DNA from: Candidatus Paracaedimonas acanthamoebae
Lineage (GTDB): Bacteria > Pseudomonadota > Alphaproteobacteria > Caedimonadales > Caedimonadaceae
DNA length: 32,000 bases
Direction of reading: 5' to 3'
Assembly: GCA_000743035.1 (NCBI GenBank)
Contig: CP008936.1
Coordinates: forward strand, 1,530,001-1,562,000
Part shown: positions 1,988-25,418 of the stretch, piece by piece
Position numbering within the stretch: the stretch's first letter is position 1
Layout of the letters: each line of letters opens with the position of its first letter
The notes under the pieces: model-generated
The model's database searches: none
Told to the model about the DNA's origin: nothing
Seen by the model: only the letters and a program-made list of their open reading frames with translations
Translations under genes and position numbers: made by a program

Positions 1988-3178
1988 TTAAACGCTGCTC
2001 TTTTCCAAAACAACTTCACGAGGAAAAGAATCTGCGGGGGAAATTTTTGAGATATCTAACTTATAGAATTCCTCTATGGCAGACTTTTGCTTTGGATCTA
2101 ATCCCTCTTCTTGAAAAACATATTTTTTAAAAGCATGAAAGAAAGAACCATCTTCGCCTAAAGTCTTGACGATACTCTCTAATCCTGAAAAAAAATAAGG
2201 AAAGTCTATAGAATTTAGATTTGGGTCTTGCAAAGTCACGCTCTTTTTAAAGACTGAACGTTCAATAAGAGCGCCTGCCATCAGAACAACATTTTGATCC
2301 GTAACAACGTTATTTTCAATAAAAATTCCTGGAACTAAACCTAAATAACTTATAATAGGGATATTATGAGACGTCATATAAAGACATCCACTATTTCCTT
2401 CTTGAGAAGAAATATAAATAGCCTTTCCTCTCATCATATTAACAGCAGCTTTAGGAAGTTTTTTAAGGCCTGATATTACTTTAGTCATATAGATATTTTC
2501 AAGAATATAAGGGGAAATGATATAATCTTCTAAAAAATCATACGATATTTTAGCTGCGCTATGATGTGAATAATGATCTTTGCTTTTTTCTTCATATTTT
2601 TTTCCATCAAAAGCTTTAGACTCATCACCAAGATAATGATAGATTACAGCATTCTCTTTTAAATCGCCTGTTATTTCCTTTGCCCTCGACGTGTTCTTTT
2701 CATCACCGATGGCTTCAATAGTCACAAAATTCCCTTGATGTGGACGGATAACTAGTGACTTACCATCTGCAATACTTTTTTCAGCGAGATCATAGATCTG
2801 GCGCGCATCATAAAAAAATTCTTTTTTCTCGCTTACCGTTAAAACGGGGCAACCCGCTAATCTCGCGAATAAGAGAAGATCAAAAACTTGTTTTTTTAGA
2901 GTCGTTCCTTTGAAAAGACCTATACTATCTTTAAATTGGTCATATTCTTCTTGAGAAAGTTCAGAAAAAGTCTTTTGGGATAATTCGCTTTTCTCTAGAG
3001 TTGATGCAAAAATACGACTAAAATCATCACTTTCATTAGCTTTCATAAATGCTTTTTTAGGATTACTAAACGCTTTTTCTAACTCTTGCATATTATCTGT
3101 TAATGAACTGCACTTTCCACCAACTGGCAATATCAAACCACACCAAAAAAAAGAAACTATTAAATAATTAAGCTTCAT
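1988..3178 (-). CDS. Hypothetical secreted protein
   Basis: 396-aa ORF with a signal-peptide-like N-terminus (MKLNYLIVSFFWCGLILPVGG). I recognise no family motif. Confidence 0.55.
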   Translation of the reverse strand: MKLNYLIVSFFWCGLILPVGGKCSSLTDNMQELEKAFSNPKKAFMKANESDDFSRIFASTLEKSELSQKTFSELSQEEYDQFKDSIGLFKGTTLKKQVFDLLLFARLAGCPVLTVSEKKEFFYDARQIYDLAEKSIADGKSLVIRPHQGNFVTIEAIGDEKNTSRAKEITGDLKENAVIYHYLGDESKAFDGKKYEEKSKDHYSHHSAAKISYDFLEDYIISPYILENIYMTKVISGLKKLPKAAVNMMRGKAIYISSQEGNSGCLYMTSHNIPIISYLGLVPGIFIENNVVTDQNVVLMAGALIERSVFKKSVTLQDPNLNSIDFPYFFSGLESIVKTLGEDGSFFHAFKKYVFQEEGLDPKQKSAIEEFYKLDISKISPADSFPREVVLEKSSV

Positions 3179-3374: not shown

Positions 3375-4343
3375 ATGAGCTACAAACCTCCCTTCATGAT
3401 TACTCCTAGGATTTTCTTTCTTTCTCAAGAGGTATCTCATATTCTTGGGGCTCTTGAAGGAGCAAGACTCAATATAGCACCCATCAAGCTTAGAAAAGAA
3501 AACAACATCAAAACAATTCAAGCATCCCTTTCTATTGAAGGAAACACTTTAAGTCTTGAACAAGTCAGTCATATCCTTGAAGGTAAGCCTGTTGTTGGGC
3601 CAAAGAAGGATATTATTGAAGTTCAAAATGCTATAGAAACTTACGCTTGTTTTGATGAATTTAATCCCTTGTCTGTTAGAGATTTTTTGCATGCTCATAA
3701 GCTTCTTATGAAAGGGCTTATAGAAGAAGCAGGACAATGGCGCTCCAAAGGAGTTGGTATCTTCAAAGGGGGGCAAGTAAAGCATATGCCGCCCCCAGCA
3801 AAACGTGTGCCTGACCTTATGGAAGATTTATTTGGCTTCTTAAAAAATGATCAAGAAACCCCCTGGCTTCTTAAAGCTTGTATATTTCACTATGAGCTTG
3901 AGTTCATCCATCCTTTTTCAGATGGAAATGGAAGGATGGGACGCTTGTGGCAACAGCTGCTGCTTGCTAAAGAAAACCTTGTTTTTAAGTACGTAACCGT
4001 TGAAGAGCTTATTAAGGCACGTCAACGAGAATATTATAGTGTTCTTGCAGAGTGCGACCAAGAAGGGGCATCAACAAAATTTATAGAGTTCTCTTTAAAG
4101 CTCGTTCTTGAGGCCCTGCAACAATATAGGAACATTACTAGTCCTACAGTTAATGATTCTAGGTCTCGTCTTGAGTATGCAAAAGATAAGCTTTCAGACG
4201 CATGGTTTTTACGCAAGGATTATATGGATATCTTTAAGGATGTTTCAACATCGACTGCAAGCCGGGATCTCTTACTTGGGGTAGAGGAGAATATCCTTAA
4301 GAAGCGCGGTACAAAGAACCAAACGAGCTATTATTATCTATAA
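3375..4343 (+). CDS. Fic family protein (AMPylase-type) with an N-terminal inhibitory-helix motif
   Basis: Canonical Fic motif HPFSDGNGRMGR (HPFx[D/E]GN[G/K]R). The upstream SLSIEGN matches the [S/T]xxxE[G/N] auto-inhibition motif. The C-terminal region looks like a winged helix. Confidence 0.85.
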   Translation: MSYKPPFMITPRIFFLSQEVSHILGALEGARLNIAPIKLRKENNIKTIQASLSIEGNTLSLEQVSHILEGKPVVGPKKDIIEVQNAIETYACFDEFNPLSVRDFLHAHKLLMKGLIEEAGQWRSKGVGIFKGGQVKHMPPPAKRVPDLMEDLFGFLKNDQETPWLLKACIFHYELEFIHPFSDGNGRMGRLWQQLLLAKENLVFKYVTVEELIKARQREYYSVLAECDQEGASTKFIEFSLKLVLEALQQYRNITSPTVNDSRSRLEYAKDKLSDAWFLRKDYMDIFKDVSTSTASRDLLLGVEENILKKRGTKNQTSYYYL

Positions 4344-4921: not shown

Positions 4922-5843
4922 AACCTCAGCTCGATATAAGAGGCGTCATTTTTGTGATTGCTTTTTCGAAAGTTATGCTTGGCTTTTTAGGTTTTAAAGA
5001 ATAAGCAAGGAGAGATGAAAGAACATTAGCAAAGTAATTCTGAACTGAGCGATGTCTTGTATGTTGAAGGTGTAAAATTGCTTTGAGTTGACCAATAACA
5101 GACTCTATAACACCTCTTTTATTGAGCCACCATTTTCTAATGGGCTCTAGGAACTGTTTTTTCATATTCCGCTTAAGTCTAGTGATAAGTTCTATATTTG
5201 AAGCTTTAAGAGTTTGAGAAAGCTTTTTACTCAAGTATCCTTTATCGCCAAAGAGCCATCCTTTAAGTCCTTGTGTGAGGGTTTGAACAACAGTGCGATC
5301 ATCTGTGCTTCCTGACGTTATTTTGAAATGCATGAGCTCTCCTTTATCATTAATGATAAGATGAAGTTTAAAACCAAAGAACCACCCTGTTGAGGTCTTT
5401 CCCCATTTTGCAAAATTTTCAAAAACTTTATGGCGTCCTATACGCCAATTGTCACACACTGGTAATTTAGTTGAATCAATAAAATACCGCCCTGTCTTTT
5501 CTGCAGGAATTTGCACCAATAAAAGAAGAAGGGGCATTATGGCCAAAGGAATTAGCTCAAGGAAACGGTTATAACTCACTAAGGTTGGAAAGGCATCTTT
5601 ATAGTATTGAGATAAACCACTCTTATAAAAATCCTTAAATGTTCGATAATGGCTTAACTAAAATAAAACGAGAATAGTCATAATCTCTGAGATAGACAAT
5701 CTACAAGAACGGCGGCGTTGGCCCTTAGAATTAGGCAGGAGTTTTACAGCACTTCTGTTCTCAAATTGCTTGCAAAAATCATCAATAAAGCAGAAAATTT
5801 CTTCTAAGGGGACCATAAAACCTCCTTTAAGTTGGTAGCTTAA
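4922..5843 (-). mobile_element. IS982-family insertion sequence (inner boundary approximate)
   Basis: Contains an IS982-type DDE transposase. The outer end AACCTCAGCTCGATATAAGAGG is repeated inverted at 7664..7701. The inner end near 5821-5843 is only an imperfect inverted match. Confidence 0.65.
4926..5816 (-). pseudogene. IS982-family transposase interrupted by an in-frame TAG
   Basis: The track ORF 4926..5579 (IDSTKLPVC..., GWFFGFKLHLIINDKGEL..., LFGDKGYLS) continues in the same frame upstream to the ATG at 5816 (MVPLEEIFCFIDDFCKQFE...). An in-frame stop lies at 5660-5658. The whole frame spans 297 codons including its two stops (internal TAG and terminal stop), a typical IS982 transposase size. 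Confidence 0.75.
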
Positions 5844-5940
5844 GAGATTTTATGGCCTCTATTCCTTTACCTCAATCACAATCAAAAAATAGTCTCTTAC
5901 ATTGAGTTCACTTTAGGAAAGTTATATCTAGTCCTATTAA

Positions 5941-8580: not shown

Positions 8581-9252
8581 TTAGGCAGGTTTAATACAAT
8601 GAGAGTTATTATTCTTAGGAGTATTCACATACTGACTTACAACATGACATGTTAAATCTTTATATTCTCGAGGATAGAGCATTGCCATCAACTCTTCTGT
8701 ACTTTTATTCTCAGGATCAAGCCAATGGTCATAATTGTGGGGTTCAATAATCACAGGCATTCTAGAGTGATAGGGCTTTAATAGGACATTAGCGTCAGTT
8801 GTAATAATAGTAACACTTACAACCTCTGCCGTTTCTTCGCCGCCTGGCCAATAGTCATAGATGCCTGCAAGTGCAAAAGGTTTATATTCTTTCATATAAA
8901 AGAAATAAGGCTGTTTTACTCCGTGAGAAGAGGTCCATTCATAGAAGCCTGAAGTTGGAATCAAGCATCTTTGTTTTTGAAATGCGTTCTTATAATAGGG
9001 TTTTTCTTTTAAAGTTTCAAAGCGAGCATTAATTGGTTTAGGCGCTTCATTAGGATTTTTTGTCCATGAAGGAATTAAACCCCAATGAGCTAAGTGAAGG
9101 TGATTATCACGAGTTTCTGCACCTTGGGAGATAATTAAGATACTTTGAGAAGGGGCAATATTGTAAGAAGGGAGAATAGAACTTTCTTCTTTTAACTCAA
9201 ATTCAGCTTTAAGTTCCTCAATTTTAGAAAAAAGAGTAAATCTTCCGCACAT
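8581..9252 (-). CDS. SOS-response-associated peptidase (SRAP, YedK/DUF159 family)
   Basis: 223 aa starting MCGRF with the catalytic Cys2, followed by YNIAPSQ, NARFETL and a typical C-terminal core. Confidence 0.9.
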   Translation of the reverse strand: MCGRFTLFSKIEELKAEFELKEESSILPSYNIAPSQSILIISQGAETRDNHLHLAHWGLIPSWTKNPNEAPKPINARFETLKEKPYYKNAFQKQRCLIPTSGFYEWTSSHGVKQPYFFYMKEYKPFALAGIYDYWPGGEETAEVVSVTIITTDANVLLKPYHSRMPVIIEPHNYDHWLDPENKSTEELMAMLYPREYKDLTCHVVSQYVNTPKNNNSHCIKPA

Positions 9253-9338: not shown

Positions 9339-9830
9339 TTAATTATTATTTTTTGCCTTCTTTCTTCGAAGAGCTTTTTCAAGTTTCTCTTGAGCATAAT
9401 CTTTATGTTCTTGAGTAATTTCTTGAATTTGTTGGCCTTGCAAATCATATCGATGAGTGCCATTGATAACAACTTTTAAATAATCAAAGTTATTGGTGTA
9501 AAATGTGAGGGCGTCTCGTACTTTCGCTTTTGAAGGGGAACCTTCTTGCTCAAGAAAGGGATAAAGATCTTTATCAATGTTAAGCTTGAGAGGTTTTAAG
9601 TCTTTAGGATTAAAGCAAGCAGGAAATTGCTCATAAAGCCAAGTTAAAACGGCTTTAATTCCTTCTCTCTTCTTCTGCTTAGCATCACGCTCTTTTTGTT
9701 TCTGTTCCTTTCCTTGTCTGCGCTTCTCTTTCTCTGCTTGTTCATGAAGCGGCTTAAGCGCTTGGAAGAGCTGGGTTTGCTTTTGTAAACTTAAAGGTTT
9801 CTTTAATGTAAGCTTGGGTTTACCGGTCAT
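9339..9830 (-). CDS. ProQ/FinO-family RNA-binding protein with a Lys-rich N-terminal extension
   Basis: LTWLYEQFPACFNPKDLKPLKLNIDKDL...VRDALTFYTNNFDYLK parallels the E. coli ProQ N-terminal domain (FLAERFPHCF...PLKIGIFQDL...LRSALRLYTSSWRYL). Confidence 0.8.
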   Translation of the reverse strand: MTGKPKLTLKKPLSLQKQTQLFQALKPLHEQAEKEKRRQGKEQKQKERDAKQKKREGIKAVLTWLYEQFPACFNPKDLKPLKLNIDKDLYPFLEQEGSPSKAKVRDALTFYTNNFDYLKVVINGTHRYDLQGQQIQEITQEHKDYAQEKLEKALRRKKAKNNN

Positions 9831-10616: not shown

Positions 10617-11294
10617 TTAACTGCTATTACCATGCTTGTAAGCCTCATTAAGGAGCTCACACTCATGCAAGGCTGCATCCAGAAAGAGTTGTTGTATTTC
10701 TGCTCTCTCTGTTTTTGAGATTGTTTGGATGAGCTGATCAAGTGATTGAATAATTCTTACCGTTTGCTCTTCTGCATCCAGGGAAGTGCAATGCTTAATG
10801 AATTGCTTATAAGGATGATTATAAGTATTGAGTCTCAAGCAACGTTTGTGCAATTGGGTGGCAAGCCAAAATCGTGGCAGGATAGCTGTAAGGATAGACA
10901 GGAATAATCTTTTTTCAATTGAAGCCTTCAAAAAGCCAATATATTCTTTGCAAGCAGCTGTTAAGTTGTAGGGGGTTCCCTTAAACTTATCTAACTGGAT
11001 GCTAAGACCACCCGCTGACATGAGAGAAAGTTGCGCATTTTGAATAAGAATTCGCTTAATGCATTTTGGATAATTTAGCTTGGATAGAAGGATCATCTCC
11101 TCAGAAAGAAAACGCCAGACACGTTCTTGTTGGTTAAGAAAGTAAGTAAACTGCTTCTCTTTTAAATCCCCATTGAATAAATGCTCATAAAAAGGATGCT
11201 TGAGAACACCCTTATGAAGATATTGAAGAGGACTCTCGACCATCTTCAGGAAAGAAGAGTCTAATTCCTCTAGTTTTGATGAAGGCTTATCCAT
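10617..11294 (-). CDS. TenA/heme-oxygenase-like fold protein (catalytic Cys apparently absent)
   Basis: 225 aa. HPFYEHLFNGDLKEKQFTYFLNQQ, ILPRFWLATQL, NHPYKQFIKH and a C-terminal ...ECELLNEAY follow the TenA pattern (HPF...G.L....F..Y..QD, PC.W.Y, npY..WI, E..FW..AY). PR replaces the PC motif. Confidence 0.5.
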   Translation of the reverse strand: MDKPSSKLEELDSSFLKMVESPLQYLHKGVLKHPFYEHLFNGDLKEKQFTYFLNQQERVWRFLSEEMILLSKLNYPKCIKRILIQNAQLSLMSAGGLSIQLDKFKGTPYNLTAACKEYIGFLKASIEKRLFLSILTAILPRFWLATQLHKRCLRLNTYNHPYKQFIKHCTSLDAEEQTVRIIQSLDQLIQTISKTERAEIQQLFLDAALHECELLNEAYKHGNSS

Positions 11295-11495: not shown

Positions 11496-12233
11496 GTTAT
11501 CTCAATACTAAATCGTTAGTGCCTGAAACCCTTTTAAAAAAGATCCAGCAGCCCGAAGACCACTGGATTCAGTTAACAGGGAGGCTATGCAAGGAATACA
11601 ATGTACCTTGCCACTTGACACACGCGATGTGTCAAATTTCTTGATCGTCTGTTCATCTATTAGATCTTTTGTTTCTTTATCGGAAATAGAAGGGAGAGAA
11701 ACTCTTAGCTTCTCTCGACCTTCTATCTTTGGCGAGGGAGGGACGCCAAACTTTAATGATAAGAAATGATTTGTGGTTCTTGTCCTCATGGAATGAAGCC
11801 TAGCAGTATTGCAACTGCTAGGCTTCTTCGGGGGAAGAACTGAATTAAAGGATGATAGTAGTGTCTCGTTTAGATGAAGCTCGTTAGCGCTGATTAACAA
11901 GTGATTCAGCGACTGATAGAAAGAACCATTATATATTCTTTCATTTGTGTGTGAAATCTGAAGCATTATTTCCCATCCCCAACTACCTGCTCTTGATGCC
12001 TCTGTTAGACTCTCCTGATTCTATTTGTTAAGCGAGAGGCAACAAGGCTCACATATATTTACGCCCTGTAAGTCATGCAAACTACAATAACATCGTAATA
12101 TTCTATTATCAACACAAAAATGTCACGTATATAGCTTGGGCATTTATTTTTGGATGAGTTTTTTCCTTAAAATTTTACACATATTTCATGTATTGATGTA
12201 TTGTTTTTTCCATAGTAAAACTCAGGAGCAAGA

Positions 12234-13112
12234 ATGGATAAAGAAAAACTAAGGCAGATTGACTTAGATAAGCTTCAAAATTTCTATTCTCTATTCAGGG
12301 AAGGATCTATCGCAAAAGCTTCAGCGGCGACAGGTGTATCACGCAGAACGTATTATCACGATTTGGCTGTGTTAGAGGCGGCTTTTAATACCAAACTATA
12401 TTTAAGTGGGAAGAAGAATTTTGTCTTAACAGATGAAGGTAGAAAGCTAGCAGATTTCTGCAAAAGCACAATCGATTCTCTCTCAAGAGTTACTGAAGAA
12501 GAACAGGTTTTTGATCAGGGTAACTTAATAATACATACTACACCTAGTATTGGTGCCTATTACTTTCCTGAGATAATTAGACAATTTAGAAAGAAATATC
12601 CTAACATATGCATAGACCTTTTAACTGGTGCAGAATATTTTACCTCTAAACATCATGACTTCGATGTGTCCATAGGACCATACCTTGCCGATAAGCGCGA
12701 TCTTTCACAGCATCTTCTGAAGAATTTCGAATATGGTTATTTTGCTTCACAAGAATATCTTGCAAGATATGGTACTCCTGAGACGGCTGAAGACCTAAAG
12801 AACCATAATCTCTTATGCTACTCAGGAGAGCATTTGATTCCTTTGGACATCCTTGAAAAAAATAAAACTGTTGTTAAATCAAATTTATATATTGCGTTAT
12901 TGAATATGTGTTTAAAAGGAGTAGGTATATGCTCTCTACCTTTAGATCTTTATACTATAAAGATGTCTGATAACAAGGACGCCAAACTTATTCGTATTTT
13001 GCCAAACATCATTTCTGAGAATGACTCTTCATATTTTTCTTTTTATAGGTTTACAAAGAAAGAAAAAGCTATTAGAGATTTATTTGACATCATTAAAAAT
13101 TTATTAAAATAA
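12234..13112 (+). CDS. LysR-family transcriptional regulator (full length)
   Basis: 292 aa. The N-terminal HTH reads LQNFYSLFREGSIAKASAATGVSRRTYYHDLAVLEAAFNTKLY...LTDEGRKL. A periplasmic-binding-like effector domain follows. Confidence 0.85.
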   Translation: MDKEKLRQIDLDKLQNFYSLFREGSIAKASAATGVSRRTYYHDLAVLEAAFNTKLYLSGKKNFVLTDEGRKLADFCKSTIDSLSRVTEEEQVFDQGNLIIHTTPSIGAYYFPEIIRQFRKKYPNICIDLLTGAEYFTSKHHDFDVSIGPYLADKRDLSQHLLKNFEYGYFASQEYLARYGTPETAEDLKNHNLLCYSGEHLIPLDILEKNKTVVKSNLYIALLNMCLKGVGICSLPLDLYTIKMSDNKDAKLIRILPNIISENDSSYFSFYRFTKKEKAIRDLFDIIKNLLK

Positions 13113-13123
13113 TATAAAATATT

Positions 13124-13153
13124 TTGTCAATAAAACTGAGTATCGCATAGATT
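13124..13153 (+). promoter_or_regulatory. Candidate sigma70-type promoter for the peptide/dehydrogenase operon
   Basis: TTGTCA (13124-13129), 18-bp spacer, TAGATT (13148-13153). It lies about 30 nt upstream of the first mini-ORF's Shine-Dalgarno sequence. Confidence 0.3.
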
Positions 13154-13185
13154 ACTTATTTTCTATCACTGTAAGGAGAATAGTT

Positions 13186-13263
13186 ATGAAAAAAATTAGC
13201 AAATACTCCCAAAACTCTGTACAACCAATGCGCATGTGCTTCATTTCTCTGTGCAAATCTTAA
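13186..13263 (+). CDS. Mini-ORF A: 25-aa Cys-containing peptide MKKISKYSQNSVQPMRMCFISLCKS (candidate RiPP precursor)
   Basis: AAGGAG lies 7 nt upstream of the ATG. It is a paralogue of mini-ORF B, with the amino-acid pattern conserved through synonymous codon differences. It is below the ORF-track length cutoff. Confidence 0.55.
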   Translation: MKKISKYSQNSVQPMRMCFISLCKS

Positions 13264-13299
13264 TTTGGTTATTTAGTTTGTTATTTTAAGGAACAACAT

Positions 13300-13386
13300 A
13301 TGAAGAAACTTAATGTTTTTAGGCAACATTCTATTTGTCCAATAAGAATGTGTTTAGTCGCTTTATGCATTCCCAATGACAAATAG
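13300..13386 (+). CDS. Mini-ORF B: 28-aa Cys-containing peptide MKKLNVFRQHSICPIRMCLVALCIPNDK (candidate RiPP precursor)
   Basis: AAGGAA lies upstream of the ATG. It shares the motif Q-x-S-x-x-P-x-R-M-C-x-x-x-L-C with mini-ORF A. Its 3' end overlaps the ATG of the dehydrogenase (13376) by 11 nt. Confidence 0.55.
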   Translation: MKKLNVFRQHSICPIRMCLVALCIPNDK

Positions 13387-14458
13387 CAAGCTTCAGTACA
13401 ATAGAAATGCCTTCTATTACCTGAAAGATGGGAAAGTTATTGCATGCAATACTCTCTCACAAGAGTATTATGAGCTAGAGGAAGATTATTTCAGGCGCTT
13501 ACTCACAGCTAGCAATAACAATTCGCATCCTCTTCCAAACGACAATATTAATAAGGAACTTTTAGAAGGTGGCCTCTTACTAGAGGATAAAAGTGAGCCT
13601 TCTATTTCATGGGAGGGAGATCCTATCTCGTTCTTCTGTCATCAAGGGACAAGGATTTTATCTCAATATACACCAAAGCTTAGCGATGAAGAGGTATGTA
13701 GTGACTTTATAAGCCTTTCTTCCTCTTCTGCTAAGGAGATCCCAGCTCGTTATATCCCTGAATATAGCGAGCGTATCCCGCTTCAAGAACCAAACCTTGA
13801 CTATTTCAATGATTCATCCCTATACAATGCTGCCAAGAATCGTAAAACTTGCCGAAACTTTGAAAATAAATCTGTAAAGATAGATTTATTGAATTCTCTC
13901 CTCTATTTTTGCTTTGGGCCAATCCATGGAAAACTATGGGAAGATTTTGAGCAGTATAATATCCCTTCCTATGGTTTGAGACGCTCTTCCCCTTCTGCCA
14001 CAGGATTACAAGGATGTGATGCTTACCTTGTTGCCTTAAATGTCGAGGGCTTAGAAAAAGGCATATATTATTATTCAAGTGACGAACATTATCTTTATCG
14101 TCTCAAAAACACACTTGATGATGAGAGCTTAATTTATACAACAAATGATCAATTCTGGGCTAAGAACTTAAGTGCTGGGATCTTTATTGTTAATGATATG
14201 AGACGGACTTGGGTTAAAGATAAGAAAGCAAGAGGATACCTCGCGGCCTACTTAGAAGCAGGACACATTTCACAGACAATATTGCTGGCTGCAACGGCTT
14301 TAAAGTTACAAACCTGGCTTACAGGAACTTTTCGAGATGATGTAGTAGATAACTTACTACAAATTAAGGGATCACCTTGCTTTGCTTCAGTCTTTGTGGG
14401 ATTGGGGTATGGAGATAATGGTTCTATTCCTAAAAAGTTTATTGAAACTATCCGTTAA
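13376..14458 (+). CDS. SagB-type dehydrogenase-domain protein (nitroreductase fold) with an approximately 150-aa N-terminal extension
   Basis: NRKTCRNFENKSV (R.S.R.F), SPSATGLQGCDAYLVA (PSAGG...Y), GIYYYSSDEHYLYRL (G.Y.Y....L) and YLEAGHISQTILLAATALKLQTWLTGTFRDDVV match the SagB/McbC-like dehydrogenase domain pattern. Confidence 0.75.
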   Translation: MTNSKLQYNRNAFYYLKDGKVIACNTLSQEYYELEEDYFRRLLTASNNNSHPLPNDNINKELLEGGLLLEDKSEPSISWEGDPISFFCHQGTRILSQYTPKLSDEEVCSDFISLSSSSAKEIPARYIPEYSERIPLQEPNLDYFNDSSLYNAAKNRKTCRNFENKSVKIDLLNSLLYFCFGPIHGKLWEDFEQYNIPSYGLRRSSPSATGLQGCDAYLVALNVEGLEKGIYYYSSDEHYLYRLKNTLDDESLIYTTNDQFWAKNLSAGIFIVNDMRRTWVKDKKARGYLAAYLEAGHISQTILLAATALKLQTWLTGTFRDDVVDNLLQIKGSPCFASVFVGLGYGDNGSIPKKFIETIR

Positions 14459-15313
14459 CAACCCCTTTAACTCTTTCCGCTTAACAATAAGACTTCCTAG
14501 AATAATAAGCATTCCCCCTGCTACCTCTTTGAATGAGGGGACATATCTCCATAAGAGATATCCTAAGATGATAGACCAAATAACAGTTGAGTACTCTAGA
14601 GGGGAGAGTTTCACCAACTCTTCTTTTCGATAAGCAAAAATTAGGCATTGAAAAGCAAGGAAATGGATAATGGCAATCAGGATGAAAAGAGGAATATCTG
14701 TAATCTGTAGAATAATTTTCTCATAAGAAAATGCGCCACTCATTAAGAAACAAATAAGAGTATAACTCGCATACAAAGCAAAATTATCAATGTGGGCAAT
14801 CCGCTTTGTTATAACGCAAGCTGAGGCATAAAAAATTGAAGATAAGAAGGCAAACATAAACCCTAGATTTAAGTTCATATCTGAAAATGGATATGACAGG
14901 ATTAAAGCGCCTATAAAGCTTAAAATAATAGGAATAATTACTGAACTGGAAAGCGCTTCTTTTAGGAATATAGCCGAAAGAACAGAAATAAAAATAGGGG
15001 ACGTAAAAGCCATAAATCCATAAGAAGATAAAGGAAGATGTTTCAAGCTATAAATTGTTAAGAAGAGTGCTCCAGCCGCAAATACATTGCGTAAAAGGTG
15101 TAAACCTTTATCAGGTTTATAGGCAGAAAATCCTTTTTTATATGTAATCCAGAGAGCAAATATAAGAGCTATTGAAGACCTAAAGAATATAATCTGAGCA
15201 GGTGCATATGAATTTGTTAAATACTTCTCTAACGCTTCGCATAAAGAATAAAGGAACATAGATAAAGCCATTAAAGCATAGCCAGAAGCTTTAATATTCT
15301 CTAGCAAGATCAT
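14387..15313 (-). CDS. EamA/DMT-superfamily transporter
   Basis: 308 aa, about 10 hydrophobic helices in two similar halves. It is convergent with the dehydrogenase gene, and their 3' ends overlap by 72 nt. Confidence 0.8.
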   Translation of the reverse strand: MILLENIKASGYALMALSMFLYSLCEALEKYLTNSYAPAQIIFFRSSIALIFALWITYKKGFSAYKPDKGLHLLRNVFAAGALFLTIYSLKHLPLSSYGFMAFTSPIFISVLSAIFLKEALSSSVIIPIILSFIGALILSYPFSDMNLNLGFMFAFLSSIFYASACVITKRIAHIDNFALYASYTLICFLMSGAFSYEKIILQITDIPLFILIAIIHFLAFQCLIFAYRKEELVKLSPLEYSTVIWSIILGYLLWRYVPSFKEVAGGMLIILGSLIVKRKELKGLLTDSFNKLFRNRTIISIPQSHKD

Positions 15314-16044: not shown

Positions 16045-16236
16045 ATGAAAAAGAATCAACCCACACACACCATCTATCAAGTCATTGAATGCGAAAAAGA
16101 TACAAAAATCTGGTCGAGAGTAGGGGCGGCTTGGATGCATCAGGATGGCGAAGGCTTCAATCTTGTTTTCGACGCCTTTCCCCTTACAGGAAGCGTCGTG
16201 GTTCGTAAGAAATCAGCAGAGGGCAAAGGGGCATAA
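16045..16236 (+). CDS. Small 63-aa protein with a GAAW motif (DUF736-like, tentative)
   Basis: GGAG lies 7 nt upstream of the ATG at 16045. The track ORF's N-terminal extension from 15979 runs through the repeat and is unlikely to be translated. IWSRVGAAWMHQDGEGFNLVFDAFPL resembles the DUF736 core (GAAW....G..L.L.D.P) seen on alphaproteobacterial plasmids. Confidence 0.5.
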   Translation: MKKNQPTHTIYQVIECEKDTKIWSRVGAAWMHQDGEGFNLVFDAFPLTGSVVVRKKSAEGKGA

Positions 16237-16267
16237 AGCCCCTTTTCTCACAAGAAAGGAAAGTACC

Positions 16268-17350
16268 ATGTTAACAGAGCAACGCATCCTTCACACCCTT
16301 GAGATCATCTCTGCTTTTAAGAATAATGCTGCTTCAGAGGATGTTTTAGAGAATTACATTGGTTGGGGCGGATTACATGATGAGATTGATATCTCAAGCG
16401 TGTATCAAGAGCTTAAAAAGTCACTAAGCGCTGAGGAAATCACAAGCTTAAAGCAAACGCTGATAAGCGCTTATTATACACCTGCCTTCCTTGTTCAATT
16501 TATCTATGATTGGCTTAGCATTTATGGTTTTAAAGGAGGAAATATCCCTGAGCCTGCTGTTGGTCATGGTGTCTTCATTGAGCATATGCCAAAGGCTATA
16601 TGGGAGCAGTGTACCATCACCACCATTGAAAAAGATTATCTCACAAGTGATATGGTTCAAACTCTTTACCCTGATTCCACCCATTATACGATAGGTTTTG
16701 AGGAATACCATCCTCAAGAAAAGTTTGACCTTATCGTCGGAAATCCACCCTTCGGTTCACAGACCATTGAAGATAAGCATCATACTGATATCCAGCACCA
16801 CTGCATTCATCATTATTTTGTTGCCAAGAGCATGCGCTTACTTAAGGAAGAAGGCATCCTTGCTATGGTGCTGACATCTTTCTTCTTTGATAATGTGAGA
16901 GATCATGTGCGCTATATCATTCATCGTGAAGGAGGAAGTTTCCTTGCAGCTTATCGTTTACCTGATAATATATTTTCAGGGGCAAAAATTACCGTTGATA
17001 TTGTCTTCCTTACTAAAGGAAGGGCAAAGAATAAATGGCTTAAAGCCAGAAATATTACCATTGGCTCTCTGTCAAAGCCCATCAATGAGTATTTCCATTA
17101 CAATAGCCATCATATTCTAGGAAACCTGGAAATCATCCTTATGTATGAAAGAAAAGGTCTAGCTTGTAAAAGGAGGGGAGATATCCATTATCTTTTAGCT
17201 CAAACCTTAAAAGATAGGGCACAAGCAAGCCTCACTAATCTTAGCTGTTCGCTTCTTGAGGTTGAGAAAGCTATGGAAGAGCTTAAGGCTAAGAAGCAAC
17301 GGCTTTTATCCAGCTATAAAGAGATACTCTGCCTTGCCAGATTCTTATAA
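16268..17350 (+). CDS. Orphan N6-adenine DNA methyltransferase (gamma-class motif order)
   Basis: Motif I is EPAVGHGVF and motif IV is LIVGNPPFG. The N-terminal YIGWGGL...AYYTPAFLV is typical of plasmid/ICE-borne methylase modules. The likely start is MLTEQR at 16268, which has an AAAGGAAAG Shine-Dalgarno sequence. The track start at 16145 overlaps the previous gene. Confidence 0.8.
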   Translation: MLTEQRILHTLEIISAFKNNAASEDVLENYIGWGGLHDEIDISSVYQELKKSLSAEEITSLKQTLISAYYTPAFLVQFIYDWLSIYGFKGGNIPEPAVGHGVFIEHMPKAIWEQCTITTIEKDYLTSDMVQTLYPDSTHYTIGFEEYHPQEKFDLIVGNPPFGSQTIEDKHHTDIQHHCIHHYFVAKSMRLLKEEGILAMVLTSFFFDNVRDHVRYIIHREGGSFLAAYRLPDNIFSGAKITVDIVFLTKGRAKNKWLKARNITIGSLSKPINEYFHYNSHHILGNLEIILMYERKGLACKRRGDIHYLLAQTLKDRAQASLTNLSCSLLEVEKAMEELKAKKQRLLSSYKEILCLARFL

Positions 17351-17460: not shown

Positions 17461-19644
17461 TTAAGCGATAAGCCACTCTTTCAGTTTGGTATATCTTTTT
17501 TTGGCTTGTTGATCTCTCACTGCCATAGATAGAGCTTTCTTTTGTCCTACAAGGATCACAAGCTGTTTTCCACGCGTGATGCCAGTGTAAAGAAGATTCC
17601 GCTTAAGCATAGGGTAGTGTTGCATCATGAGCGGAATAACAACGGCAGGGTATTCAGATCCTTGAGCTTTATGGATGGTTGTAGCATAAGCAAGCACCAC
17701 TTCATCAAGTTCGCCAAAATCATAAGTGATGAGCCTTCCTTCATATTCTACTTTGAGTTCTTGTTCTTCTTGGCTGATTTCTCTGATGTAGCCAATATCC
17801 CCATTATAAACATCTTTGTCATAGTTATTGGCAATCTGCATCACCTTATCATCCACACTATAACTTGAGCCAAAGCGTTCGACCCTATTTTGTAGCGAAG
17901 GATTTAAGGTTTTCTGAAGCTCTATATTAAGTGACCTTGCGCCCACTCCACCTCTGTTCATAGGACATAAGACTTGAATCTCTAAAATAGGATTAAAGCT
18001 AAAAGCTTTAGGGATTCTATTCTTTACAAGCTCCAGTATTTTATCCTTACACTCTTCTGGTGTCTGGCTTTCAATAAAATAAAAGTCAGATTTGTCTTCT
18101 TTTTGAGGGAAAAGTGGCATAAGTCCTTGGTTAATGCGATGAGCATTTGAAATAATCTGGCTTTGAGCAGCTTGGCGGAAGATTTCTGTAAGCCTCGCAA
18201 CCGTAAAAACTCCTGACTTAATTAAGGCATTTAAAACAGCTCCAGGCCCAACAGAAGGGAGCTGATCAATATCTCCCACTAAAATAAGGGCAGAGTGAGG
18301 GGGAAGGGCTTTGAGAAGAGAATGCATCAAGGGAACATCCAACATGGAGACTTCATCTACGACAAGAAGCTGACATTCAAGAGGTTCTTCTTCGTTCCTT
18401 TTAAAGTCATGTTTTTCTGGATCGTATTCTAAAAGCCTATGGATGGTTTTCGCTTCAAAGCCTGTGGTTTCTGATAAACGTTTAGCAGCACGCCCCGTTG
18501 GCGCTGTAAGTAGGATTTCTAGATGTTTAGCGGCCAATATTTTTAACAGACTTTTAATGAGGGTTGTCTTTCCAACCCCAGGGCCCCCTGTAATAATGGC
18601 AACTTTAGAATTAAAAATAAGCTTAAGGGCTTCTTTTTGGCTTTCTGCTAAGGTCATTGAAAGGCGCTCTTCAACCCACGGGATGGCTTTATCAATCTCA
18701 AGCACTCCCCAAGGGGGCTTACATGAGGAAAGTTTTTTGAGAGATTTTGCAATCAGGGTTTCAGCAAGATAGAGGCCTTTTAAGAATACACAAGCTTCAC
18801 CCTCAAGAGTATCCCCCACTAAGTCACCAGTTGTTAGTTCCGACTCAAGAACAGGTTTAACACTATCAACGGGTATTTCTAAAGCCTGTGCGGTTGAAGT
18901 TAAGAGCACCTCTATCGGAAGACCGCAATGGCCTTCATCCATGGCCTCGAGTAAGATATGGCTGATTCCTGCTCTGATTCTTAAAGGCGAGTCTTTGGCA
19001 ATTCCAACCTTTTGCGCAATTTGATCCGCCGATTTAAAGCCAATGCCTCTGATTTCTCGGGCAAGACAATACGGATCTTCCTTTATAACTCTTATGGCAT
19101 CCGTCCCAAAGGTTTTATAGATCCTAACAGCCCTTGCGGTACTAATGCCATGTTGATAGAGAAAGACCATAATCTCTCTAATAACTTTTTGATCATCCCA
19201 GGCTCTTGTCATCATGGTCATGCGATACTGACCAATTCCTTCAACAGTCCGCAATAAATGAGGAGTTGTTTCAATCACATCGAACACTTGAGATCCAAAA
19301 GCTTTAACCAGCTTTTTAGCATACACAGGGCCAATGCCCTTGATCATGCCTGAGCTTAGATATTTTTCAATGCCTTCTTCTGTATTTGGCGCTGTTGTGT
19401 TGAGGTAATTTGCTTTAAACTGGGGGCCGTAGTTTTTGTCATTGATCCATATCCCTGAGGCTTGGATAAACTCGCCAGCAGAGATCATGCTTGCATGCCC
19501 TACAACAGTGACAAGATCTTTCTGCCGCTCAGCTTTAACACGTAAGACGCAATAACCATTTTCCGCATTATGGTAAGTGACCCGTTCAATAAGGCCAGTC
19601 AGAAGGTCAAGCTGTGGTGAAGAGGAAGTAACGCTCATAAGCAC
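17461..19644 (-). CDS. recD2: RecD2-type SF1B DNA helicase (RecD/TraA family)
   Basis: 727 aa. The N-terminal reads ERVTYHNAENGYCVLRVKA...GIWINDKNYGPQFKA. HhH-like segments follow, then Walker A ITGGPGVGKTT, Walker B LLVVDEVSMLD and a C-terminal TIHKAQGSE. Confidence 0.9.
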   Translation of the reverse strand: MLMSVTSSSPQLDLLTGLIERVTYHNAENGYCVLRVKAERQKDLVTVVGHASMISAGEFIQASGIWINDKNYGPQFKANYLNTTAPNTEEGIEKYLSSGMIKGIGPVYAKKLVKAFGSQVFDVIETTPHLLRTVEGIGQYRMTMMTRAWDDQKVIREIMVFLYQHGISTARAVRIYKTFGTDAIRVIKEDPYCLAREIRGIGFKSADQIAQKVGIAKDSPLRIRAGISHILLEAMDEGHCGLPIEVLLTSTAQALEIPVDSVKPVLESELTTGDLVGDTLEGEACVFLKGLYLAETLIAKSLKKLSSCKPPWGVLEIDKAIPWVEERLSMTLAESQKEALKLIFNSKVAIITGGPGVGKTTLIKSLLKILAAKHLEILLTAPTGRAAKRLSETTGFEAKTIHRLLEYDPEKHDFKRNEEEPLECQLLVVDEVSMLDVPLMHSLLKALPPHSALILVGDIDQLPSVGPGAVLNALIKSGVFTVARLTEIFRQAAQSQIISNAHRINQGLMPLFPQKEDKSDFYFIESQTPEECKDKILELVKNRIPKAFSFNPILEIQVLCPMNRGGVGARSLNIELQKTLNPSLQNRVERFGSSYSVDDKVMQIANNYDKDVYNGDIGYIREISQEEQELKVEYEGRLITYDFGELDEVVLAYATTIHKAQGSEYPAVVIPLMMQHYPMLKRNLLYTGITRGKQLVILVGQKKALSMAVRDQQAKKRYTKLKEWLIA

Positions 19645-21965: not shown

Positions 21966-24900
21966 ATGGCCTTAGCGCATGGTCGCTTAAAAGTAATCTC
22001 CCGTTCTAAACGAAATACCGTGCGAGCCCTTGCTTATCGCACAGGCTGCAAGATCTATGATCATCGGACTGGTGAACTCATGACTACCCGCAAGAAAATG
22101 CATGAGGTGCAGCATGTAGAACTCTTACTTCCTCAGGACGCGCCAGAATGGGCTTTGGAGCTAAGAAATCTTATAGCAGCTGATCGCCAAAAAGGCATGC
22201 AGAAGTTTTCTGATATTGTAGAAGCACACGAGAAAAGAAAAGACGCTCAAGTTTATCGAGAATACGAGTTCGCTTTGCCACGAGAATTTATAGATGAGCA
22301 AGGCATAAAACTCGCGAATGAGTTCATTCAAGATCAGATGTGTGGCCAAGGAATGACTGTGCTTGCTAATTTTCATTTTGATGTTGATGAAGACACAGGG
22401 GAGAGAAAACCCCACTGTCATGCTTTAATGCTCACTCGAAGACTTACAGAAAAAGGATTATCATTAAAAAAAGAAGTTGAGTGGAATCGAAGAAGCTTAG
22501 GGGCAGAACTTAGAGAACAGCTTGTTGCTTACACAAACTTTCATCTTAAAATGTATAGTTTTGATGAAAGGCTTGATTATCGTTCTTATGCTGAAAGAGG
22601 CATTGAACTTGAGCCTCAGCCTAAGCGGGGAACAAACGTTAAGGCAGTGGAATTAAGAGAAGGGAACAACCCTCAAGATCTCTTCTCAAGTGTTGCCTCA
22701 GAAAAAGCTATTGCCTTTCGTGCAACCAAGCTGAGAAATATCTACCGTATTATCAGAAATCCTGACATCGTTATTCGTGATATTGTAAGCAAGCATCATG
22801 CTACTTTTATGTGGGGAGATGTTGAGAAAGTACTCAATCGTTATATTGATGATAAAGACCTCTACAAGCAAGTAGAGCAGAAACTTAAATCTTCAAAAGA
22901 ACTCGTATTGCTTAGGTATGACACAATTAAACATAAGGATGGCAGCATTGAAGATCATTCCATTTACACGACCAGGACGATGCTGGAATCAGAGATTAAT
23001 TTGGTAACTTTAGCAGAGAGACTCAGCAAGGAACAAACCCATAAGGTAGACAATGATAAAATTGGTATTATTGTTCATCAATTTGACCAAAAGCTTTCAA
23101 AGTATGGTGGCCTTTCACCTGATCAAAAGAAAGCCCTTCGCCACATAACAGCACCAAACCAGCTTTCATGCATTGTAGGCTATGCCGGTGCTGGCAAGAC
23201 CACAGCTTTAGAGGCTACTAAAGAAATTTGGGAAGCAGAGGGCTATAAGGTTTATGGTCTTGCGCCCACAGGACGGGCAGCACAGAACCTTTCGCAATCA
23301 GGTATATCCTCACAAACACTTCACAAATTTCTGTACTCTCATAAAGAAGGAAGGTGTCAGTATAAGGCTAATTCGGTCCTTATCCTTGATGAAGCAGGGA
23401 TGGTGGACACGGAAAGGTTTGATGAGTTTTTACAAGCGGTTGATGATTTAAAGGTTAAAGCAGTTATTGTTGGGGATGGGGCACAATTGCAGCCTGTTGA
23501 AGCGGGTCCTGCTTTTAGACTTGTGACTGAGAAGGTAGGAATGTCCCACCTTGAAAAGGTGGTTCGCCAGAAAGAAGCATGGCAACAGGAAGCAACAAAG
23601 CTTTTTGGGACTCTTAAGACAAGAGAAGCTCTTCAAGCTTATCATCAAAAGGGGTATGTGCAGTTTATTGAAGAAAAAGAGATCCCTATTGCTGAACTCA
23701 TTGAGACAAGAAATCATTTTAAAATTGTTGAAACATACAACCTTTCCCGTCGTATGGTGGGTAATATTTACCATTCTATGGTTGAGGATATTAAAAAAGA
23801 TAATCCTGAAGAAAAGAACCCCCATTATTATCTTCAGAGCCATGAAGATTATACTCTTTATCGAAAATGGTGGGATCTTAAGGAGGTATGTGCGCGCCAT
23901 ATGAAGCAGAATCTTCATGAATGTCGACCTTTGATGAAAGAGCTCGGTGTTGACCCTCAACACTTTGCAGAACAGTTTGTTGATAAAGGGATGAGCCTTA
24001 GGGAACAAAAGCTAGAAGCAACCCACTTAGCCCGTCTCTGGGAGCTCCCACAATTAAATCCTTACCAAAGGAAGCATATCTGTGAGCTGAGAAATGAGAC
24101 AAAGAAAGCCCTCATTCAGGAATGGTATGCATCCTTTAAGGAAGACGCTCAAAAATCCCGCCTTCTTATGACCTACAGTAAGGCAGATACAGCTATGCTT
24201 AATGAGGAAGCCCGCCATCTTATGAAACAAGATGGTGTGGTAGCAAAAGAAGAATATCTCCTCACTATCTATAAAGAAGACGAAGATGTTTTTGGAGACA
24301 AGATTATTACAAAAGAAGAGAAGTACTTTGCCAAAGGCGATCGTATCCTTTTCATGAGAAATAATAATGGTCTCAAAGTTAGAAAGGGAACATTAGGGGT
24401 TATCTTAGAAATTAACCGCCATAAGATTAAAGCCAAGCTTGATCATACTGGCGATATCGTCTCTTTTGCGCCTAAGCTTTATCCTTACTTTGACCAAGGC
24501 TGGGCGGCTAACATTCATAAATCTCAAGGGGTAACTGTTGACCGAGCATTCTTATTAGCTACCCATGAGACCTACCGTAATCTGGCTTATGTGGGTATGA
24601 CAAGACATCGAGAGTGGGGGAAAATCTTTGGCTCCAAACTTGATTTCTGGCGAGAGGAGATCTTTTTCAAACGGCTTTCTTCATCTCAAGAAAAGCTCTC
24701 AAGCTTGGATTATATGAAATCCTATGATAATATAATTCTTCCAAAGCAAAATTTTAAACTTCAGGAGATCCTTAACCGCCTTGGCAATGAACTAGAGGCA
24801 ATGCGTTTCGTGTCCAAACAAGCGTGGCAGAGTATCGCAGAGCGGTTTTTAAGTAAGATTCCCGAGCAACAAGAGATCCGTATCTCTCAAAGAAGTATCA

Positions 24901-25418
24901 GTGAGCACATCAGGGCAAAAGAGTTATTGGAAGAACATGGTACCGAAAATAATAAGCTTCATAAAAAGTATATTGAACAAGAGTATTCAATCAAAAATGC
25001 TTCCAACCCAAACACCACAAGAACATCTAAAAATGAAACTGATAGTATTGGGATTCGCCAGCCAGCAGAGGAAAAAGACTTTAAGCAACCACTCTCTCTT
25101 CATAAGGTGGCTCAAGAGCCTCAAACGCTAGCAAGTGACAATCTAAAAGTACAACAGCAGCAGCAATTGAAGACAAGAGCAGAGCTAACAGGGCTTGAAA
25201 GAATAAAGTCTCTCATTGATGCTCATAAGCTTACTCGTACAGAAGCAGAGCGAAAACAAACTGAGGCTACTCTCAGGCAGTACGCCCAAGAACTTTACAA
25301 GCAAGATCCAACCTTTAAAAGTATTAGAAATAAAGATGCAGAAATAACTAAGCAGGTTAGAGCCATTCTATTTGAAGGAGAAAGAAACAAGATTAATGAC
25401 AGGGAACATCAGAGATAG
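21966..25418 (+). CDS. traA: Ti-plasmid-type TraA relaxase-helicase (MobA/MobL MOBQ relaxase + RecD-like helicase)
   Basis: The N-terminal reads MALAHGRLKVISRSKRNTVRALAYRTGCKIYDHRTGE with the catalytic Tyr region. The histidine triad region reads KPHCHALM. The helicase domain has Walker A VGYAGAGKTT, Walker B VLILDEAGMVD and a later NIHKSQGVT. Confidence 0.9.
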   Translation: MALAHGRLKVISRSKRNTVRALAYRTGCKIYDHRTGELMTTRKKMHEVQHVELLLPQDAPEWALELRNLIAADRQKGMQKFSDIVEAHEKRKDAQVYREYEFALPREFIDEQGIKLANEFIQDQMCGQGMTVLANFHFDVDEDTGERKPHCHALMLTRRLTEKGLSLKKEVEWNRRSLGAELREQLVAYTNFHLKMYSFDERLDYRSYAERGIELEPQPKRGTNVKAVELREGNNPQDLFSSVASEKAIAFRATKLRNIYRIIRNPDIVIRDIVSKHHATFMWGDVEKVLNRYIDDKDLYKQVEQKLKSSKELVLLRYDTIKHKDGSIEDHSIYTTRTMLESEINLVTLAERLSKEQTHKVDNDKIGIIVHQFDQKLSKYGGLSPDQKKALRHITAPNQLSCIVGYAGAGKTTALEATKEIWEAEGYKVYGLAPTGRAAQNLSQSGISSQTLHKFLYSHKEGRCQYKANSVLILDEAGMVDTERFDEFLQAVDDLKVKAVIVGDGAQLQPVEAGPAFRLVTEKVGMSHLEKVVRQKEAWQQEATKLFGTLKTREALQAYHQKGYVQFIEEKEIPIAELIETRNHFKIVETYNLSRRMVGNIYHSMVEDIKKDNPEEKNPHYYLQSHEDYTLYRKWWDLKEVCARHMKQNLHECRPLMKELGVDPQHFAEQFVDKGMSLREQKLEATHLARLWELPQLNPYQRKHICELRNETKKALIQEWYASFKEDAQKSRLLMTYSKADTAMLNEEARHLMKQDGVVAKEEYLLTIYKEDEDVFGDKIITKEEKYFAKGDRILFMRNNNGLKVRKGTLGVILEINRHKIKAKLDHTGDIVSFAPKLYPYFDQGWAANIHKSQGVTVDRAFLLATHETYRNLAYVGMTRHREWGKIFGSKLDFWREEIFFKRLSSSQEKLSSLDYMKSYDNIILPKQNFKLQEILNRLGNELEAMRFVSKQAWQSIAERFLSKIPEQQEIRISQRSISEHIRAKELLEEHGTENNKLHKKYIEQEYSIKNASNPNTTRTSKNETDSIGIRQPAEEKDFKQPLSLHKVAQEPQTLASDNLKVQQQQQLKTRAELTGLERIKSLIDAHKLTRTEAERKQTEATLRQYAQELYKQDPTFKSIRNKDAEITKQVRAILFEGERNKINDREHQR

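Follow-up and report, generated by a model that had tools for sequence, protein, structure and literature searches.

The window analyzed here is a stretch of 32,000 nucleotides from Candidatus Paracaedimonas acanthamoebae (contig CP008936.1, positions 1,530,001 to 1,562,000), and coordinates given without a locus name refer to it. Our subject is a compact locus at 12234..15313, in which a transcriptional regulator, two very short open reading frames (ORFs), a SagB-type enzyme and an exporter are packed together. An earlier annotation made from the DNA letters (the original prediction) had proposed that this locus may encode an undescribed system for a peptide that is ribosomally synthesized and then post-translationally modified (RiPP) or a similar product.

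Organization of the locus

On the forward strand, a LysR-family transcriptional regulator of 292 aa (12234..13112; Pfam HTH_1 and LysR_substrate) is followed by two forward-strand mini-ORFs that encode candidate precursor peptides. Mini-ORF1 (13186..13263, 25 aa, MKKISKYSQNSVQPMRMCFISLCKS) has the Shine-Dalgarno (SD) sequence AGGAG 7 nt upstream, and mini-ORF2 (13300..13386, 28 aa, MKKLNVFRQHSICPIRMCLVALCIPNDK) has AAGGA at the same distance. The next gene on this strand (13376..14458) encodes a SagB-type enzyme of 360 aa with two domains. Its ATG (13376) has no SD sequence of its own and is overlapped by the 3' end of mini-ORF2 over 11 nt; the last mini-ORF is predicted from this sequence to be translationally coupled to the enzyme gene. 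On the reverse strand, an EamA/drug-metabolite transporter (DMT) of 308 aa (14387..15313; two Pfam EamA domains, about 9-11 hydrophobic segments by hydropathy) is convergent with the enzyme gene, and the two overlap at their 3' ends by 72 nt (14387..14458).

A sigma-70-like match, TTGACA-18-AATAAT (11/12; 13084..13113, forward strand), overlaps the LysR stop codon and lies just 5' of mini-ORF1. It is the best such match of the region and a consensus match only; in total, the region has no more sigma-70-like sites than expected from shuffling. The original prediction had listed the regulator, a plausible promoter, the two SD-preceded mini-ORFs, the overlapping 360-aa protein and the convergent transporter, and all are in place. 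Rfam and tRNA scans of the window gave no match. PADLOC found no defense-system match for the enzyme, the LysR regulator, the EamA transporter or two neighboring ORFs.

Enzyme identity and structure

The sole Pfam match of the enzyme is to the Nitroreductase family (PF00881, residues 154-345, E 1e-14). Against the NCBIfam model TIGR03605 (“SagB family peptide dehydrogenase”) it scores 85.4 bits, above the cut-off of 78.4, and because this cut-off is passed we do not regard it as an ordinary small-molecule nitroreductase. Its score against TIGR04511 (SagB_rel_DH_2, putative peptide maturation dehydrogenase), reached with the C-terminal domain only, is 98.1 bits and falls below the cut-off of 240. 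The SagB-type assignment of the original prediction is thus borne out, with one correction: the stretch it had read as R.S.R.F contains the residues R-K-T-C-R-N-F.

An AlphaFold2 model of the full enzyme, built with a 39-sequence alignment, has a pLDDT of 90.7. Its best match among solved structures is the cyanobactin oxidase ThcOx (5LQ4; E 6e-16, TMq 0.63-0.68), over 380 aligned columns that include the N-terminal part, followed by BmdC, 3EO7 and McbC. Foldseek also matches the enzyme to the cyclodipeptide oxidase AlbA/AlbB (PDB 8UC3, 9EXV) with E 2e-6. Together, sequence models and predicted structure identify the enzyme as a two-domain flavoprotein of the SagB/ThcOx type.

The C-terminal domain (residues ~141-360, 13796..14458) is the SagB-type part, with the nitroreductase fold that binds flavin mononucleotide (FMN), as indicated by PF00881, TIGR03605 and the fold matches. 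It has K281-D282 in place of the Lys-Tyr active-site motif, which reportedly matters in azoline dehydrogenases. K281 is invariant across the family alignment. The residue that follows it is Asp throughout the window clade, whereas Tyr is kept in distant family members, ThcOx and BmdC.

The N-terminal domain (residues 1-128, 13376..13759) is modeled as a beta-beta-beta-alpha-alpha fold resembling a RiPP recognition element (RRE), with a helical linker that carries an invariant W79/D82 motif. Modeled alone with AlphaFold2, it reaches a pLDDT of 82.8 and shows three beta-strands and then helices. Its top Foldseek matches are nearly all RRE proteins (ThcOx, TbiB1 with leader, SuiB, the PbtF RRE, CteB, lasso B1, McbB), each of them weak. 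Pfam scans of the N-terminal domains of 36 family members returned no consistent family, and the one match of an N-terminal profile to PDB sequences was judged spurious. Because the Foldseek matches are weak and the sequence methods blank, we describe the modeled domain as RRE-like at the level of fold only. The original prediction had suggested that this extension is a leader-binding domain: the fold agrees with the suggestion, but every Foldseek match is individually weak and the sequence methods came up blank.

Conserved peptides upstream of the enzyme

The original prediction depended on homologous enzymes also having small peptide ORFs beside them, and most do. In most related loci, the enzyme gene is directly preceded by ORFs of about 22 aa that have an SD sequence in front; they occur across enzyme clades that are only about 40% identical, as one to three tandem copies per locus. 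Related loci are named here by their handles (L001 and so on). Since the mini-ORFs are conserved across distant loci, they are more than chance occurrences. Almost none of them was picked up by gene callers or in RefSeq; they are neither called nor annotated in L018-L021, Bacillus cereus or Maritalea, as expected from the earlier statement that standard ORF calling would overlook such genes.

Both window peptides belong to a family, termed type I, of 12 distinct peptides from seven loci. These align without gaps over 22 positions with the pattern M-K-K-[IL]-x-[IVL]-F-x-Q-x-[SQ]-x4-R-x-x-F. The conserved positions are K3, F7, Q9, R16 and F19; R16 is invariant, and conservation is highest over R16-x-x-F19. 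Eleven of the 12 peptides have Q9, the exception being that of L018. The residue before it, at position 8, is variable (S, R, T, G, K, E or N; S and R in the window peptides) and follows hydrophobic residues at positions 6-7. Four of the 12 peptides have Cys at position 18, where the others have P, M, I or L. The Cys-x4-Cys pattern found in each window peptide, which the original prediction had treated (also as P-x-R-M-C...L-C) as the defining motif, is confined to the window/L001 clade; since homologous peptides do not conserve Cys, that emphasis does not hold.

The type I pattern is specific to its position. Among 4115 small ORFs in 279 kb of sequence, the regular expression matches only ORFs immediately upstream of the enzyme. 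With a hidden Markov model (HMM) trained on the window/L002/L010 clade only, the best non-training matches in the same set are peptides upstream of ~40%-identical enzymes (L019, 6e-5; L012, 3e-4; L011, 2e-3). Codon usage points to type I peptides that are translated: identity is 0.52 at codon position 1, 0.59 at position 2 and 0.41 at position 3, synonymous changes are found in 253 of 516 identical-residue codon pairs, and Arg16 is encoded by CGC, CGA, CGT and AGA.

Other enzyme clades have their own, internally conserved peptides, termed type II (MSEITNTQSIVCMQRAPFFKKR, MIEITTKQSLACSQRAPLFKKKK, MKKIKKKTSLFNHVKAPLLKKK). Type III peptides (MKEIRLESSVLANWTQAAIALK, MKTIILESKKIANLHCLVRAK, MKTISLETSHIANLAFLVAPKAR), likewise internally conserved, occur in loci with an AurF-like gene and have no Gln at the position equivalent to Q9. 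The single-enzyme LysR/EamA locus L028 encodes a 29-aa peptide with a GTG start (3915..4004, VEEITEAIHEIELMIQYMVVVKNEEEEEK), in which an acidic leader and the residues L-M-I-Q resemble published tiarin precursors.

Two further observations concern individual peptide loci. On the Bacillus cereus plasmid pE33L466 (L023), an unannotated, SD-preceded ORF of 26 aa (5838..5918, MKIFKPSENEYTNRVNSEHGETSPSK) precedes a hairpin and, beyond it, an operon of a SagB/ThcOx dehydrogenase and a major facilitator superfamily (MFS) pump; this may be a Gram-positive version of the module. Between L002 (1570..1638) and L010 (2036..2104), there is a sharp recombination breakpoint within the peptide ORF, at codon 15/16. 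From the Arg16 codon on (RMCFISQ*, then the enzyme), the DNA of the two loci is ~97% identical, whereas the first 15 codons and the upstream region toward LysR are ~50-60% identical. Diversifying selection was considered for this peptide, with 91% identity between the enzymes and 59% between the peptides, and was rejected in favor of the breakpoint.

Enzyme family and conserved gene neighborhood

A word-indexed search returned 40 full-length homologues of the enzyme. An exhaustive profile search returned 1120 representatives with E < 1e-30, of which at least 150, after clustering at 50%, match both domains. The genome scan used a 17-sequence alignment, as the broad 39-sequence alignment was too divergent. 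The closest relative, 93% identical, is from “Caedibacter sp. 38-128”, a Holosporales metagenome-assembled genome (MAG); others come from Pandoraea and from one MAG each of an alphaproteobacterium and a member of the Verrucomicrobiales. More distant SagB/ThcOx genes, ~25-30% identical and with an adjoining MFS pump, were seen on plasmids of Bacillus cereus and Maritalea. A megablast search of the locus against plasmids gave no match, and matches on Sinorhizobium plasmids were rejected as related modules, being oxidases associated with nonribosomal peptide synthetases.

The neighborhoods of about 20 distinct loci were compared. In at least 12 of them (the window, L001, L002, L003, L010, L011, L012, L018, L019, L020, L021 and L028), a LysR gene of the same orientation is found directly upstream. 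Most loci have an EamA or MFS pump next to the enzyme gene. The EamA gene is convergent with the enzyme gene and overlaps it in the window, L001, L002, L010, L019 and L020, and is co-directional in L028. An MFS pump takes its place in L003, L021, Pandoraea, L017, L030, B. cereus and Maritalea. The combination of LysR regulator, peptide, enzyme and exporter is thus a compact module, as the original prediction had suggested from the one locus, and it recurs across phyla.

The module has several variants. A 3' overlap of enzyme and EamA genes of 45-99 nt is kept between ~40%-identical clades (L002, ~2656..2718; L019, 5982..6080; L020, 5147..5191), which suggests tight linkage or antisense coupling of the transcripts. 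In L005/L006 (Pandoraea), L017 and L030, a distinct peptide type (MKEIRLESSVLANWTQAAIALK and similar) precedes an enzyme with Lys-Tyr, and an AurF-like di-iron oxygenase and an MFS pump follow, all co-directional. In the distant family members L016 and L027, an ATP-grasp_4 gene adjoins the enzyme gene. Finally, a divergent second paralogue of the enzyme (P0047 cluster) is found in the Caedibacter sp. 38-128 MAG and on a 71-kb plasmid of Ca. Paracaedimonas acanthamoebae, so that the system is present more than once in these symbionts.

Partner genes

No gene for YcaO, ThiF/E1, LanB/C/M or radical-SAM proteins was found among the window ORFs of at least 100 aa that have a Pfam match. The corresponding statement of the original prediction holds within this scope; it is not absolute, since nine window ORFs of at least 100 aa have no Pfam match. 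The genes examined in related loci likewise include no YcaO, ThiF-like, lanthionine or radical-SAM gene. Given these results for the window and the related loci, a distant cyclodehydratase partner is unlikely. The window and each related locus contain only one nitroreductase-family gene. The window was also said to have no protease gene. This is correct for RiPP proteases, but one gene does bear a peptidase name: it encodes SRAP (8581..9252), a DNA-damage protein and the only peptidase-named product in the window.

A proposed YcaO-independent RiPP-like pathway

Taken together, the conserved peptides, the two-domain SagB flavoprotein, the translational coupling, the co-inherited LysR regulator and pump and the missing YcaO are best explained by a YcaO-independent, RiPP-like pathway. 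We hold with moderate confidence that the locus is a compact operon of this kind, and it probably represents a new, single-enzyme RiPP-like family.

In this pathway, the RRE-like N-terminal domain would dock the peptide, and the amphipathic N-terminal segment MKK[IL]x[IVL]F would probably bind by contributing an extra beta-strand. Oxidation or dehydrogenation would be carried out by the C-terminal FMN domain, probably as a homodimer, on the peptide itself rather than on an azoline made by YcaO. There are two candidate sites of modification. One is Q9, by analogy with the Gln-derived fluorophore of the tiarins, a group of peptides compared below. The other is R16-x-x-F19, which might, for example, undergo C-alpha/C-beta desaturation as in the cyclodipeptide oxidases of nitroreductase fold. 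The EamA pump would then export the product, and the adjacent LysR regulator would control expression. The product could act as an antibiotic, perhaps a tiarin-like one, or as a signal carried on a mobile element.

Several points weigh against this interpretation. The best Foldseek match of residues 1-128 has an E value of only 0.08 and none reaches E <= 1e-3, the domain has no Pfam or PDB sequence match, and hhalign comparisons of this domain alone with the N-termini of the Thermus TfxC and TfxB homologues (the two tiarin dehydrogenases) are not significant. RRE-like domains fused to dehydrogenases of thiazole/oxazole-modified microcin (TOMM) pathways may, moreover, be vestigial (PMC7470986). 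With the type I HMM, neither type II nor type III peptides are recovered, and homology of all the peptides to one another is therefore not established; four loci (L015, L016, L022, L029) have no recognizable upstream peptide. No protease or leader-removal gene was found. The negative result for YcaO covers the window and the related loci, and a YcaO elsewhere in the host genome is possible. Translation of the mini-ORFs is predicted from sequence comparison, and binding and modification of the peptides are putative.

Comparison with known systems and alternative explanations

The closest described system is that of trifolitoxin and the tiarins. In these, short precursors (TfxA) are encoded upstream of two RRE-fused FMN dehydrogenases, TfxB and TfxC, the homologues of which lie as a pair within about 2.7 kb, and the role proposed for the dehydrogenases is a modification different from azoline oxidation (bioRxiv 10.64898/2025.12.02.691738). 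A conserved Gln after a specificity residue of the precursor gives rise to a warhead that inhibits an aminoacyl-tRNA synthetase (aaRS) and to a fluorophore; immunity is conferred by GNAT or duplicated aaRS genes, which are frequent and not universal, and YcaO is only accessory (bioRxiv 10.64898/2025.12.02.691738). Stand-alone SagB homologues served only as an outgroup in that study, which also reports tiarin clusters in amoeba-associated Legionella and Protochlamydia (bioRxiv 10.64898/2025.12.02.691738).

The locus shares with the tiarins SD-preceded short precursors immediately upstream of a flavoenzyme of SagB/nitroreductase type with a fused RRE or RRE-like domain, an export pump in or beside the operon and a precursor Gln after a variable residue. 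With a Thermus tiarin cluster as the reference, profile comparison aligns residues 18-340 of the enzyme family with the TfxC homologue (probability 99.2) and residues 74-330 with the TfxB homologue (probability 98.3), at an identity of the enzyme to these proteins of only about 20-24%. A search of the plasmid collection with the TfxA peptide gave no match. The systems differ in several respects. Tiarins have an obligatory TfxB/TfxC pair, an acidic/aliphatic leader of 20-50 aa, GNAT or aaRS immunity genes and a MATE pump. The locus has one enzyme, precursors of 22-28 aa with a basic MKK N-terminus and only 7 aa before X-Q, and a LysR regulator with a DMT pump; no GNAT (Acetyltransf) or tRNA-synthetase Pfam match was found in the window or among the called genes of related loci. 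With one enzyme, no GNAT or aaRS gene and a short basic leader, it is not a tiarin by definition, and it may work in a related way.

A specific form of the favored pathway would make the locus a minimal, single-enzyme tiarin-like system, in which Q9 becomes the warhead and the preceding residue (S and R in the window peptides) sets the aaRS target. The near-constant Q9, placed after a variable residue and hydrophobic ones, does resemble motif 2 of the tiarins, and the profile similarity to both TfxC and TfxB homologues and the tiarin clusters of other amoeba-associated bacteria fit the same idea, as does the L028 peptide, which is the only one with a tiarin-like appearance. Beyond the differences in enzyme number, immunity genes and leader, however, many other peptide positions vary as much as X, the Gln is missing in L018, and type III peptides have no equivalent of it. 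We consider this form rather unlikely.

It is also unlikely that the mini-ORFs are cis-regulatory leader or arrest peptides, that is, upstream ORFs (uORFs) comparable to SpeFL and TnaC that tune a small-molecule enzyme and a transporter and are not substrates. The order of uORF, enzyme and transporter resembles speFL-speF-potE. The enzyme ATG lies inside mini-ORF2 without an SD sequence, so that translation of the enzyme would depend on that of the uORF; R16 and F19 are invariant and fixed in position, as in arrest peptides, and a vestigial RRE-like domain would fit this explanation as well. However, sensor uORFs do not typically occur as one to three diverged tandem copies per locus, and no terminator-like hairpin or antiterminator was found between the peptide ORFs and the enzyme gene at the window locus. 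In addition, a dedicated LysR regulator is already present, and the enzyme falls in the peptide-dehydrogenase branch (TIGR03605) with a RiPP oxidase as its nearest structural relative.

An azoline-based pathway is less credible still. The enzyme resembles the azoline dehydrogenases of TOMM, linear azol(in)e-containing peptide (LAP) and cyanobactin pathways (SagB, McbC, BalhB, ThcOx) in its FMN nitroreductase fold and in its TIGR03605 score, and ThcOx is its best structural match, including the N-terminal RRE-like domains of that protein. It could accordingly be a classical TOMM/LAP dehydrogenase, with a YcaO encoded elsewhere in the genome that heterocyclizes the Cys residues of both window peptides, each of which has Cys-x4-Cys; the search for YcaO covered the window and the genes examined in related loci. 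We regard this as very unlikely. Three of four features of TOMM B proteins are missing: the YcaO (or C/D cyclodehydratase) partner was not found, the Tyr of Lys-Tyr is Asp in the window clade, and the peptide core is not defined by Cys, Ser or Thr. Cys is not conserved in the homologous peptides, and many of the related loci, in which no YcaO or ThiF-like gene was seen among the genes examined, are located on plasmids or on conjugative elements, with the minimal module traveling by itself.

Finally, short ORFs are frequent at 35% GC and promoter-like sites are not above chance, but the idea that the mini-ORFs arose by chance in AT-rich DNA between genes, next to an ordinary nitroreductase, is effectively refuted by peptides and SD sequences conserved between clades, the codon-position signature and the passed SagB model.

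Two further groups resemble the module. The ATP-grasp “branch 6” loci contain a SagB-like nitroreductase, to which no chemistry has been assigned, and unusual short precursors (Makarova et al. 2022, PMC8939145), and correspond to the distant enzyme-family members L016 and L027. Unlike these, the window clade has no ATP-grasp gene and has other peptides, and K-Y, kept in the ATP-grasp-associated members, is K-D in the window clade. The cyclodipeptide oxidase AlbA/AlbB shares the FMN nitroreductase fold at the superfamily level only. It carries out C-alpha/C-beta dehydrogenation of Phe and Leu, a residue type that is kept at peptide position 19; in contrast to the enzyme described here, its substrates are diketopiperazines, it assembles into filaments and it lacks an RRE-like domain.

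A literature search for systems of a stand-alone SagB and a peptide returned only the tiarin preprint and a graspetide survey, and the LysR-peptide-enzyme-EamA module was not found in it. The term “undescribed” used in the original prediction is apt for this single-enzyme module, but it needs qualifying: orphan SagB-like genes, SagB-like dehydrogenases of the trifolitoxin/tiarin type, which are proposed to do something other than oxidize azolines, and ATP-grasp-associated SagB-like loci are already known. With this reservation, a broader proposal can be offered tentatively and with somewhat less than even confidence. The module would be a widespread, undescribed class of single-enzyme RiPPs, in which a lone RRE-fused SagB-like flavoprotein with Lys-Asp for Lys-Tyr oxidizes, independently of YcaO, precursors of about 22 aa that would be among the shortest known. 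Its product would leave the cell through DMT or MFS pumps and would act either as a minimal aaRS inhibitor of tiarin type or as a peptide signal to which the co-inherited LysR responds; the module itself is borne by plasmids and by conjugative elements of amoeba endosymbionts.

Implications

If the favored pathway is correct, the locus represents a RiPP family that arises from a single tailoring enzyme and unannotated precursor genes of ~22 aa, which annotation pipelines systematically miss. It would also show what flavoenzymes of the SagB/TfxB type do without a cyclodehydratase or a TfxC partner. Because only three genes would be needed (peptide, enzyme and pump), the module would open the chemistry of the trifolitoxin/tiarin scaffold to simple experiments. 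The product could be ecologically relevant, given the at least 150 full-length clusters (50% identity) and their presence on mobile elements of amoeba symbionts, in Pandoraea, on Bacillus cereus plasmids and in Verrucomicrobia.

Genomic setting

Mobile-element and effector genes abound in the window. In order, these encode a Fic protein (3375..4343), an insertion sequence DDE transposase (4926..5579), the SRAP protein mentioned above, ProQ/FinO (9339..9830), a RecD2-like helicase (17461..19644), a MobA/TraI relaxase (21966..25418), a Tn3 transposase fragment (28857..29426) and two F-box proteins (29719..30246 and 30515..31975), one with TPR repeats. On the basis of the relaxase, ProQ/FinO, transposase, Fic and F-box genes, the window looks like a plasmid or an integrative and conjugative element of a (Holosporales) amoeba symbiont. 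Many related loci likewise lie amid genes for Tra and ParAB proteins and for toxin-antitoxin systems.

On the strand opposite to LysR and just upstream of it are a TenA/THI-4/PQQC-family gene (10617..11294) and an ORF of 152 aa without a Pfam or PADLOC match (11508..11966). These two are kept only in the near-identical Caedibacter loci and therefore probably lie outside the module. The module is flanked by an N6-adenine DNA methylase gene (Eco57I-like; 16145..17350 in the window) and a SRAP gene not only here but also on the Maritalea plasmid (L025), which is unrelated; these two genes may belong to a shared plasmid backbone.

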